Source of the DNA: a virus
Lineage: Duplodnaviria; Caudoviricetes
IMG/VR virus record: IMGVR_UViG_3300008262_000001
Strand: one strand, 5' to 3'
Length of the DNA stretch: 64,000 bases
Shown here: one piece after another, positions 33,110-36,602 of the stretch
Layout of the letters: each line of letters starts with the position of its first letter
Numbering within the stretch: position 1 is the first letter of the stretch
Notes under the pieces: generated by a model
Database searches by the model: none
Seen by the model: only the letters and a program-made list of their open reading frames with translations
Told to the model about the DNA's origin: nothing
Translations under genes and position numbers: made by a program

Positions 33110-33877
33110 TTAAACTTCTACTAAACCTATTGCTATTACTGAATCTGACTGGGTTGATTTAACAAGAATTCTATTTTCGTGAAAATGTATTTCTGACGAT
33201 TCTTGATCAATATAAGAAAACTGGTTCTTGTAAATGGTATAAACACTTGGATTACTAAATCCATTAGGAGTAGATCCTTTGATAATCTGATATTGGAAAG
33301 AATTACCTCTGACAGTTACTCCTGATTCGTGTACATCAAAATGCAAAAGTTCCTCTGAATTTGATTCTATTCCTGTTAAGGATGAGAGTTTTTGGAATGA
33401 CTCGCTTGTGATGGCAAAGTTAATTTCAGATCCCTCTGTAGAGTGTATTTGCCTTTGAATGTTATCATCTATGTAAGCTAAAAGACTTATGTCTGCACAT
33501 TTGATAAAGATATTCAAAGACGAAGAAGAAAACTTTAAGCTCGTAGCAATTAAATCCTTTTCATAAGGTTGGGATTCAATGATTAGGTTGAGTTCTTCTT
33601 CTGGTCCAAAATATTTGAATACGTCAATGAGTTTTCCTATTTCAAGAATTCCTATTTTTAATCTATTAGGAGGTAAATCACCTTCCAATATTTCATTCAG
33701 ATCAACACTGACATATTTAATAACAGATTTATCAGGAGTTCTTACCTTTGCAAAAACATTGCTTCCTTCAATTTCAAGAGGTACACTTTTGTCTACCAAT
33801 TTAAGCTTTTTAAGGAAAGAGATAAAATTAGTAGAGTTTACTATTCTAAAATTCCAGGTTTGTGTTTTTTTACTCAT
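33110..33877 (-). CDS. Putative sliding clamp/processivity factor (gp45/PCNA-like)
   Basis: 255 aa with a two-domain beta/alpha pattern; immediately upstream of the pol fragment; no diagnostic motif confirmed. Confidence 0.5.
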   Translation of the reverse strand: MSKKTQTWNFRIVNSTNFISFLKKLKLVDKSVPLEIEGSNVFAKVRTPDKSVIKYVSVDLNEILEGDLPPNRLKIGILEIGKLIDVFKYFGPEEELNLIIESQPYEKDLIATSLKFSSSSLNIFIKCADISLLAYIDDNIQRQIHSTEGSEINFAITSESFQKLSSLTGIESNSEELLHFDVHESGVTVRGNSFQYQIIKGSTPNGFSNPSVYTIYKNQFSYIDQESSEIHFHENRILVKSTQSDSVIAIGLVEV

Positions 33878-35189
33878 TTTCTATATTTGTTTCTAATTCT
33901 TGATCCATTTGTGGGTCAATTTCATTTTCAGGATCCCAAATTCTTATTCCGTTATGGAATTCCTCTTTTGTTTCACTCATGAGTGATGTTGTTCTAGAGG
34001 ATTTTTTGGATATTCTCTTGTGTTCTTTCTCTATGTTCAAAACCTTCGATTTTTGAGTTTTGATTTCGAGATTCTTGTTCTTTATATCGGATTTACAAGA
34101 ATTAATTTCCTGCTTTGTTTTTTCTATTTCATCTTTTGTCAATTTAGTCAATGAAATAGATTCAAGCCTTCTTGATATCTCTTTCTTGAAAGGAGCTAAG
34201 AAATCCAGTACTTCTTGTGCTGCTCTCTTTTTTTCCGACATAAAAAGTAGGAATTTTAATTTAGCTTCCAAGAAATCTAATTCGTCCTGAAGATAGACTA
34301 AATCTCTTTCAAACCTTTTTAAAACAGTTTGCTCCTTGTGAACTATAAAGTCTTCCAAATAGTCTTCAATTGAATCATATTCAAGGACGTTTCCGTCCTT
34401 TACAAAAACTATATTTTCAGTTACTATCTGTTTAGTTTCTTTAAGTAGAACTTCACAAACATTTTTAAATTCCTGGTCTGTACATCTAAACTTGATACTG
34501 ATCTTAACTTCCTCTGTTGAAAAATTATCTATTTTGTAATTTAAACCAGTCTTTTCTAAAGCTAAATTCAATCTAGTAAAGAAAGATTCATATCTCTGCA
34601 ATGGTGAAATAGAATCTATTTTAAATGTCCTAGAATTTAAGTCAATTTCTGTCTCTCCTTCAATAAGCCAAGCAGACTTCAGTGAATCAACCCTTGTGAT
34701 TTTACCCTTAAAACCTCTGAAGTATGGCTTGAGTTTTTTGGTCTTATTTCCATCTAAATAGGTAATTAGTTCATCTGGCTTTCTTGGAAGAATATTCGAT
34801 TTGTATCCCACTGCAATTCCCACAATATGTGTGGACAATCCTATAGGATAATCAACATGAATCCAATCAAATCCACCTTCTTCGTTTGGTTGATTTAGAT
34901 CTTTGTATTTTTCAATTATGTCTTTGTACTTGGATGATATTTTAACTTGAGTATACCTTGGGGCTGATGGGGAAGGATTAACTGGGGTTCCAAAAAATCC
35001 ATCACCTAAAAGAATCTGATCAGAACAACCAAAAGGTCTAGCTAATTTGCAAATTGCCTGTGAAAGAGAAGAATTATGACAAACTATTTTGGAATCACCA
35101 ATAATAAAATTATGATAATTTTCAACGGTAATATCATAGAACTTTTCTGGTGAATCTAATTTGATTCTGTTTATTTTTTTAATTTTCAT
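33870..35189 (-). CDS. Type IIA topoisomerase A subunit (gp52/GyrA-like), C-terminal part, preceded by a 39-aa split C-intein
   Basis: FYDITVENYHNF...VCHN|SSL; GFFGT, active-site PRYT, VGIAVGY..NILP. Confidence 0.9.
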   Translation of the reverse strand: MKIKKINRIKLDSPEKFYDITVENYHNFIIGDSKIVCHNSSLSQAICKLARPFGCSDQILLGDGFFGTPVNPSPSAPRYTQVKISSKYKDIIEKYKDLNQPNEEGGFDWIHVDYPIGLSTHIVGIAVGYKSNILPRKPDELITYLDGNKTKKLKPYFRGFKGKITRVDSLKSAWLIEGETEIDLNSRTFKIDSISPLQRYESFFTRLNLALEKTGLNYKIDNFSTEEVKISIKFRCTDQEFKNVCEVLLKETKQIVTENIVFVKDGNVLEYDSIEDYLEDFIVHKEQTVLKRFERDLVYLQDELDFLEAKLKFLLFMSEKKRAAQEVLDFLAPFKKEISRRLESISLTKLTKDEIEKTKQEINSCKSDIKNKNLEIKTQKSKVLNIEKEHKRISKKSSRTTSLMSETKEEFHNGIRIWDPENEIDPQMDQELETNIENE

Positions 35190-36055
35190 TTTTTATAAAC
35201 TATTCTATCAAATTCCTGTATTTCTTTTATTAATTCGCTTATTTCTACTGAACAACTACTATTCTTCTTTGCATTATCGCTGAAATTAATAATCTCTAAA
35301 TTACAGATGTGCCCTATAATTTCTGGAGAGATGTTGTGTTTGAATCCAAAACATCTCGAATACCTGTGATCAATGGTTAACCATTCAGACTGTTGGAGTT
35401 TTCTGGATTCGGTAATTTTTTCCCAAATATCATCACCAAATTTTATTTTAGCATATCTTCTCATTTGACTCCATGTGATGTTGTGAACATTCTCATCATA
35501 AATACTTTTTAAGTCCATCATTTCTTTAGGTGCCCAAAATCCATTCTTTTCCGCAGTAGCCCTTTTTTTGTTTTTAATTTGGTCAACCTTCGAAGGATTA
35601 GTATATCCATATTTTTGTATCCATGTTTCTTTTAATTTATACAAAACATCATTTCTAGCAAAAACATTATCAACGCCATATTTTTGATTCAAAGATTCTA
35701 CCATATTTTTTCTAGCAATCGAGTCTCTTGATAGATTATGATTTGATCCTGTCGATAAAAATGTGCTTTGTTTTTTCATGATTAATGAGCAAGATTCAGA
35801 GCAGCACATACTAAATTTTTCATATTCCTTTTCACATATAAAGCATTTATTTTTATACCTATCTTTATAGCTTTTGAGTGAATTATAAAATTCAGGATAT
35901 TTCTCATAATTTTTTTTCCAAACTTTAAATGGTTTTCCTGTACTTTGTATTTCAAAAAATTTATCCTGTGACTTACACTTTGTGTTGCAATACTTATTAA
36001 GATTTAGCTCGGATTCAAAATCTTTCCCGCAATTCTTACATTTTTTTATCATCAT
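35186..36055 (-). mobile_element. Free-standing HNH-type putative homing endonuclease between the topoisomerase split-intein halves
   Basis: CKNC and CFIC Zn motifs, KYG repeats, C-terminal TIDH...NL.....DN.KK. Confidence 0.78.
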
Positions 36056-36602
36056 GGATTTTTACTTTTATATATCCAACGTGATGGTAGAAATCTTTTA
36101 TATCCATTCCTTCCTCAAGATCTTCAGCCTTAATCCATTTTGAATCAACATAAAAGGGATGATTTTTAGTACACTTAATAACCTCACCGGTTTCTAATTC
36201 AATCTCAATTAATTCGTTGGTAATTTGACCGATCCTTGGAGAATGTCCAATCCCGAAAGTTTTTTCACCAGTTTCAGTATCGATACAAGAAACCAATAAA
36301 TCACATTCTGGATTTTTATTATACCAGTCTTCTATTGTAATTTGGTTACCATCTGCTAATTCTATTTTTGTATCCCCTGCAACGCAGTCTCCGTGGTGGT
36401 ATAGCCCTGTCCCAAAAACTTCCCCTATGACGCCAACAGTCTTTTTAAAAGCACCTGGAGAATTTTGTAAAATCAATCTTTGGACTGGAGTTAAGCAATC
36501 GTAGAAATTAGGGATTCCTCTGCTTTGGATAACATAAAGAGCATATTTTCTATAGTCATTATCAATCTGTTCAGAGATAGTTAATGTTTTTTTTGTTTCC
36601 AT
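36036..36602 (-). CDS. Topoisomerase A subunit N-terminal 72 aa fused to a 116-aa split N-intein
   Basis: YALY...RGIP..YD.LTPVQR, YHHGD|CVAGDT, block B CTKNHPF. Confidence 0.9.
   Translation of the reverse strand: METKKTLTISEQIDNDYRKYALYVIQSRGIPNFYDCLTPVQRLILQNSPGAFKKTVGVIGEVFGTGLYHHGDCVAGDTKIELADGNQITIEDWYNKNPECDLLVSCIDTETGEKTFGIGHSPRIGQITNELIEIELETGEVIKCTKNHPFYVDSKWIKAEDLEEGMDIKDFYHHVGYIKVKIHDDKKM
36069..36076 (-). promoter_or_regulatory. GATATATA late-promoter-like motif in the end of the topoisomerase N-intein, upstream of the HNH gene
   Basis: 13 nt upstream of ATG 36055. Confidence 0.6.

Follow-up and report, generated by a model that had tools for sequence, protein, structure and literature searches.

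The window analyzed here is a 64,000-nt stretch of viral DNA (Duplodnaviria; Caudoviricetes) from the IMG/VR record IMGVR_UViG_3300008262_000001, in which the gene for the gp52/GyrA-like A subunit of a type II topoisomerase is very probably fractured by a trans-splicing split intein, with a selfish homing endonuclease gene located between the intein halves. The sequence anatomy, the logic of the junction, the conservation of residues, polymorphism in the population, and the predicted docking underlie this conclusion, and splicing, cleavage, and homing are inferred from them. A split intein in a topoisomerase A subunit with an endonuclease between its halves had been proposed in an initial annotation made from the sequence alone, and the conservation of the intein residues, the intein-free junction in relatives, the docking prediction, and a phrog_3339 match of the intervening open reading frame (ORF) all agreed with it.

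The locus consists of three ORFs on the minus strand (Table 1). The intein halves are encoded by separate ORFs, each with its own start and stop codon, and the predicted spliced A subunit has 472 aa (about 54 kDa). The expected parts of the N-fragment, namely a 72-aa N-extein ending in YHHGD, a Cys-first N-intein stretch of 116 aa, and a TKNH block B, were located on the minus strand, and those of the C-fragment (a 39-aa C-intein with CHN, an SSL extein start, and the PRY motif) were read in the ORF at 33870-35189. The overlapping gene anticipated between the halves corresponds to the ORF at 35186-36055, whose overlaps are 20 nt with the N-fragment ORF and 4 nt (ATGA) with the C-fragment ORF. 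Dassa et al. 2009 (PMC2677866) introduced the term "fractured gene" for such a layout.

Table 1. Positions of the predicted features of the fractured topoisomerase gene and of the large subunit gene in the window.
Feature	Coordinates	Strand	Description
N-fragment ORF	36036-36602	-	188 aa; 72-aa N-extein and 116-aa N-intein stretch
Endonuclease ORF	35186-36055	-	289 aa; free-standing
C-fragment ORF	33870-35189	-	439 aa; 39-aa C-intein and 400-aa C-extein
N-extein, topoisomerase II A (gp52/GyrA-like)	36387-36602	-	72 aa; C-terminal GLYHHGD
N-intein core	36090-36386	-	99 aa; Cys1 is ORF residue 73; block A CVAGDT; block B T145-K-N-H148
N-fragment tail	36039-36089	-	17 aa, YHHVGYIKVKIHDDKKM; stop codon at 36036-36038
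Weak leader hairpin	36050-36086	-	Base-paired with the start codon of the endonuclease gene (ATGATG)
C-intein	35073-35189	-	39 aa; IVCHN end with penultimate His38 and terminal Asn39
C-extein	33870-35072	-	400 aa plus stop codon; +1 nucleophile Ser40, then SSLSQ
Catalytic PRY in C-extein	34953-34955 (Tyr79)	-	C-fragment residues 77-79
Topoisomerase II large (GyrB/gp39-like) subunit	42548-44392	-	614 aa, uninterrupted; phrog_543, E 1.7e-102

Sequence comparison identified the host protein as a genuine topoisomerase IIA A subunit. Both exteins matched PF00521 in Pfam (N-fragment, E 4e-5; C-fragment, E 1.2e-30), and the C-extein matched the structure of T4 gp52 (8ylu, E 4.6e-10), in which SRY aligned with the PRY of the C-fragment (Tyr79). 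The gp52 alignment placed the N-extein at residues 10-85 and the C-extein at residues 80-444. The insertion site lies where the DNA-gate helix begins, at about residues 77 and 78 of T4 gp52, and D72 and the +1 Ser aligned with D82 and S83, respectively, of E. coli GyrA (full-length GyrA, 6rks). T4 topoisomerase II (gp39, gp60, and gp52) is also a multi-subunit enzyme, and the large subunit gene of the window phage is likewise nearby; however, T4 gp52 is encoded by one unbroken gene, whereas the A subunit of the window phage is split, and the extra split of T4 (gp39/gp60) is intein-free and affects the other subunit.

The junction was supported by comparison with related IMG/VR loci. The gene was uninterrupted in 72 of the 80 loci, reading YHHGD↓SS(L/M)..A(I/V)SKLARPFG over the predicted junction (arrow), and a split intein was present at exactly YHHGD↓S in the remaining 8. 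Since the contiguous alleles match both the end of the N-extein and the start of the C-extein, the layout is not due to chance. The layout was also recovered from independent metagenome runs. A 2024 run gave a single contig over 35109-36900, a 2017 run gave contigs at 34931-35464 and 35595-36817, and a 2019 run gave contigs at 33500-35681 and 35654-36388, all with 0 differences, and a further run contained an approximately 86%-identical contig (34510-36549) of the same layout. Because runs of three studies bridge both gene junctions, the arrangement is not an assembly artefact. A contig joining the halves across the endonuclease was not found in four runs, which is a weak negative result as contigs drop rare variants.

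The split topoisomerase allele is not rare but widespread in metagenomes and freshwater phages. A search with the N-fragment against a collection of 5.8 billion proteins returned at least 79 clusters (90% identity) of 149-190 aa with the topoisomerase-N and N-intein layout, carried by contigs as long as 293 kb. The stretch itself was present in lake-water and freshwater metagenome runs of several studies, and also in runs labelled "fungus metagenome", which may represent the sample of origin. The nearest deposited phage record was LR756500.1 (relative L001, a 462-kb uncultured phage), which is 30-38% identical and is split at the same site. Separately, a topoisomerase A N-terminal protein without an intein (P0084), encoded on a 238-kb NCBI contig, has only 162 aa and ends in ...GIAVGYRS, and the topoisomerase A gene of that phage may be interrupted at another site downstream.

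The residues of the splicing chemistry were conserved throughout. Cys1 and the Thr and His of block B were invariant in 79/79 clusters, and HN↓S, that is, the penultimate His, terminal Asn, and Ser+1, was present in 11/11 of the related loci read. The N-half matched PF07591 in Pfam with 33.9 bits (cut-off, 27.7). The 17-residue tail of the N-fragment was missing in most of the 79 clusters, leaving a structural N-intein of about 99 aa, and it was homologous to the untranslated endonuclease leader hairpin of relatives L027 and L011. The tail is a read-through of the endonuclease 5' leader and is outside the intein fold in most relatives.

The two fragments were also predicted to dock. The interaction prediction score from aligned errors (ipSAE) of the N-fragment with the C-fragment was 0.86 (0.85-0.86 over three runs), compared with 0.01 for the best control; of 78 solved complexes, 51 attained the docking mark, as did 2 of 108 mismatched pairs. 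Because split inteins have already been solved, part of this pass may stem from resemblance to known structures. At least 83% of the contacts were common to the runs, and the predicted local distance difference test (pLDDT) value of the partner was at least 69. The predicted interface consisted of residues 1-40 of the C-fragment and the N-intein core.

The 289-aa protein encoded between the halves is, with moderate confidence, predicted to be an HNH-like nuclease, because it matched phrog_3339 "homing endonuclease" (E 8e-9), contains a conserved DH..N..N motif, and has HNH nucleases as its best fold matches. Its alignment revealed two N-terminal Cys-pair (zinc-ribbon-like) modules, helical repeats resembling DUF7487 (26.3 bits, slightly below the cut-off), and a C-terminal DH...N...N block. 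The conserved motif comprises D229-H230, N252, and N261, of which N261 is invariant, and is thus an H-N-N variant. The AlphaFold2 model (pLDDT 89) showed strands at 226-230 and 253-257 followed by a helix at 258-263, and VIA-align of residues 181-289 ranked 4h9d (Gme HNH nicking enzyme) and 7p9k (BrxU) at the top, with SspE, GVE2 HNH, Cas9 HNH domains, Cap5, and T5 SciA among the further matches. A Foldseek search of the PDB with the full model gave no match at E <= 0.001, the elongated model picking up zinc-finger arrays alone. Approximately 30 clusters of homologues of about 288 aa, 50-92% identical, were found, several of which share contigs with N-fragments. The family is modular, and distant homologues share the N-terminal modules and end in a Vsr-like nuclease. 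The endonuclease start codon is sequestered by a strong hairpin in L027 (-27.5 kcal/mol, z -8.9) and L011 (-17.1 kcal/mol, z -5.2). A scan for promoter-like sites found them to be no more numerous than in shuffled sequence.

Relatives differ in what lies between the intein halves. A full HNH-type endonuclease is present in the window and in L002/L009, L011, L012, and L027, and a Vsr-like ORF of 300 aa occupies the same position in L001. The endonuclease is found as two broken ORFs in L014; in L013 the halves are separated by a 295-nt gap with no ORF, and in L005, L006, and L010 by 21-121 nt only. L006 and L027 share 95% identity in both flanks and differ by the endonuclease body of about 815 nt, and L006 still has a single leader-hairpin arm together with the final ~31 endonuclease codons. 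These remnants indicate that the endonuclease-less state is a secondary deletion and not ancestral. Read from these sequences, the relatives appear to represent stages of a homing cycle: intein-free, split with an HNH-type or Vsr-like endonuclease, decaying, and lost. Loss of the endonuclease by deletion corresponds to the later steps in the gene-breaking model that Dassa et al. put forward (PMC2677866).

The other topoisomerase subunit also varies among these phages. The Toprim part is fractured as well in LR756500.1 (4132-5977), where a 373-aa ORF with a window-like HNH-like C-terminus is followed by an ORF opening with a C-intein (...GIISHN↓SALS), and both topoisomerase subunits of this phage thus carry putative split inteins. 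In L005 (1-3084) and L006 (590-3082), two ORFs of about 576 aa (HATPase_c) and 235 aa (Toprim) make up the large subunit gene, unlike the single ORF of the window.

The following mechanism is proposed. A mini-intein would have resided in the conserved YHHGD↓S motif, and a free-standing endonuclease gene would have invaded it between blocks B and F, the usual position of endonuclease insertion, to give a naturally split intein. Two polypeptides would be produced, the 188-aa N-extein with N-intein and the 439-aa C-intein with C-extein, whose intein halves would associate as a single HINT (Hedgehog/intein) fold. Class-1 protein trans-splicing is the most likely mechanism because all the canonical residues are present: Cys1 would carry out the N-S acyl shift, Ser+1 would attack the thioester, Asn39 would cyclise with the help of His38, and an O-N shift would link D72 to Ser, yielding a 472-aa subunit of the same layout as the intein-free homologues. 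Only the spliced chain would have an intact DNA-gate helix beside the catalytic Tyr, and this chain would pair with the uninterrupted large subunit. In co-infecting relatives, the 289-aa enzyme would cleave alleles that lack the intein or the endonuclease, and repair would copy the endonuclease gene along with the flanking intein halves. Translation of the enzyme would probably be held low by the leader hairpin over the start codon. The idea that the endonuclease resides within a self-splicing intron, whose removal from the RNA would make the intein whole again, was also considered and rejected, as an Rfam search of 33500-37000 (E <= 1) found no group I or II intron.

Several results weigh against this interpretation. 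The whole-intein model PF14890 gave 24.4 bits for the N-half and 24.6 bits for the C-half, each below its cut-off of 35.8; such scores are expected because each sequence is half an intein, and the C-intein covers model positions 122-155. The ratios of nonsynonymous to synonymous divergence (dN/dS) between the window and L002, ~0.065 (N-intein core), ~0.064 (endonuclease), and ~0.067 (C-extein), speak for the interpretation, as all three parts are clearly constrained by purifying selection, but the figures are rough since dS is saturated. No Pfam HNH model matched the endonuclease, including its C-terminal 74 residues, or the other intervening ORFs, and the 4h9d and 7p9k matches had a Z of 4.3, a level that the tool itself describes as common, with a root-mean-square deviation of 4.0-4.2 over 69-86 residues. 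The leader hairpin of the window, at the position homologous to the strong hairpins of L027 and L011, was weak (-7.8 kcal/mol, z -0.5) and not significant by itself. Finally, the endonuclease was 77% identical to that of L002 at the amino acid level and the C-extein 76.5%, suggesting that the endonuclease diverged in step with the host gene, for which long vertical co-inheritance fits equally well as active homing.

This co-divergence bears on the reading in which splicing by the intein continues while the endonuclease has lost its mobility, being either inactive cargo or domesticated, for example for excluding intein-free co-infecting relatives or for another nuclease role. The loss of the endonuclease by deletion or decay in relatives that keep the split intein, and the H-N-N variant motif with no Pfam HNH match, point in the same direction. 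On the other hand, the endonuclease ORF is intact with dN far below dS, its motif is kept across the ~30 clusters, and near-identical phages differ in its presence or absence, which is typical of an element that is still cycling; immobility is therefore considered unlikely, though with an appreciable chance of being correct. We regard it as very unlikely that the halves have ceased to splice and serve only as a high-affinity dimerisation module holding the topoisomerase pieces together non-covalently, like the NrdA fragments of phage Aeh1, which assemble unspliced. Split genes that assemble without splicing are known from T4-like phages (PMC2677866; PMC3045599), and the predicted docking is compatible with such a module too. 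However, Cys1, the block B Thr and His, the penultimate His, the terminal Asn, and Ser+1 are needed for the chemistry only and are all invariant in the clusters and loci mentioned above, and an unspliced complex would keep about 155 intein residues at the start of the DNA-gate helix. Apart from the interruption of the gene as such, nothing favors a pseudogene broken by insertion of a nuclease gene or an assembly chimera: contigs of three studies span both junctions with 0 differences, the layout is common to at least 79 clusters, all parts are under purifying selection, and no second topoisomerase A-subunit gene was seen within the window, so that this explanation is scarcely credible. A gene fractured by a trans-splicing intein with a homing endonuclease is accordingly preferred.

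The genomic context of the locus is shared with relatives, in which the order is topoB, UvdE, DnaJ, topoA-N, (endonuclease), topoA-C, a 255-aa ORF, a family B DNA polymerase (PolB) piece with N-intein, a Vsr-like ORF, and the PolB C piece. The gene order topoN, endonuclease, topoC, 255-aa ORF, polM, Vsr-like ORF, and polC given in the initial annotation was confirmed in the window; for the 255-aa product (ORF 33110-33877), labelled "clamp" there, no family match was found. The window also encodes NrdA (47276-49648) and a transfer-messenger RNA (23417-23857, minus strand) with the tag peptide EEAELLLAA (ARAGORN), and its G+C content is ~0.30-0.37. A G+C-rich hairpin between A and T runs, terminator-like on both strands, was found at 36656-36677, where it separates the topoisomerase N-fragment from the 526-aa gene upstream. 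A 266-aa ORF at 40003-40803 (minus strand), between the UvdE-like and DnaJ-side genes, had no family match above threshold; it has lysine-rich repeats and, at its N-terminus, a zinc-ribbon-like CxxC pair, features similar to the N-terminal modules of the free-standing endonucleases, and it may by this resemblance be another free-standing nuclease.

The PolB of the window is encoded in three pieces on the minus strand (30257-33108 and 51928-53334). Piece 1, the 468-aa exonuclease/N-terminal part, is about 19 kb away and has no intein; piece 2 (ORF 32386-33108) is a 240-aa middle part with a YGDTDS(VF) end followed by an apparently Ser-first N-intein; and piece 3 (ORF 30257-31240, 327 aa) opens with a C-intein ending in LVHN↓S. 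A 380-aa Vsr-like ORF (31225-32367, phrog_22677) lies between pieces 2 and 3. The best solved match of the PolB N-intein was a 173-aa polymerase intein chain (9hth_A, E 1.5e-9). From its sequence, this intein looks like a naturally split one and is possibly cysteine-less. Comparison of the topoisomerase N-intein with the PolB N-intein of the same phage gave nothing significant (E 1.9); without detectable similarity, the two pairs are probably orthogonal and cross-reaction between them would be unlikely. A bolder proposal, to which we assign a low probability, is that the phage uses the topoisomerase and PolB split inteins and the retained endonuclease instead of only tolerating them as parasites: trans-splicing, with a redox-sensitive Cys1 in the topoisomerase intein, would gate assembly of the replication machinery post-translationally, and the endonuclease, maintained by purifying selection, would exclude or convert intein-free co-infecting relatives.

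The fractured genes that Dassa et al. 2009 (PMC2677866) described from uncultured phages are those of gp41 (gp41-1 to -9), NrdA, NrdJ, IMPDH, DnaE, DNA ligase, gp17, and one unknown protein; neither topoisomerase nor gyrase is mentioned there. This list agrees with the initial annotation, which did not count topoisomerase among the classical hosts of split inteins. A full-text literature search short of most subscription journals turned up no paper on a topoisomerase or gyrase with a naturally split intein. The locus resembles the fractured genes of Dassa et al. in its phage context, overlapping frames, and canonical split position (~99 and 39 aa), and possibly in the hairpin before the endonuclease, which is weak in the window (hairpins upstream of free-standing endonuclease genes were described in PMC2677866), and gp41-7 is an endonuclease-less variant such as those among the relatives of the window; however, the host protein and the site, equivalent to GyrA D82↓S83, are outside their eight listed types.

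Contiguous inteins of GyrA, GyrB, Top6B, and TopA have been surveyed in cellular genomes (PMC4760082). Mycobacterial GyrA inteins (e.g. the Mxe GyrA mini-intein) likewise begin with Cys1 and interrupt a conserved DNA-gate motif of a type IIA A subunit, but are contiguous and cis-splicing, unlike the split intein of the window. They adjoin the catalytic tyrosine and are not known to lie at HGD↓S. No sequence similarity of the window intein to mycobacterial GyrA inteins was found in the PDB search. The class-1 residues (Cys1, TxxH, HN, and a +1 nucleophile) and the sizes of the halves (~100 and 36-39 aa) are the same as in Npu/Ssp DnaE, NrdJ-1, and gp41-1, although, unlike these as a group, the window intein has Ser and not Cys at +1. 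The closest solved inteins in the same search had marginal similarity (E 0.03-0.1; DnaE and NrdJ-1 chains, E 0.05-0.1), indicating a separate intein lineage.

Taken together, what is new is the host protein and the insertion site, the fractured-gene layout being already known from other phage enzymes. The halves constitute a candidate split intein pair of ~99 and 39 aa with Cys1 and Ser+1, which together with the unrelated PolB pair could give orthogonal ligation tools. The clade holds side by side every stage of the gene-breaking model and is thus good material on the origin and persistence of split inteins. If its sequence is read correctly, a type II topoisomerase would join the enzymes assembled by natural protein trans-splicing.

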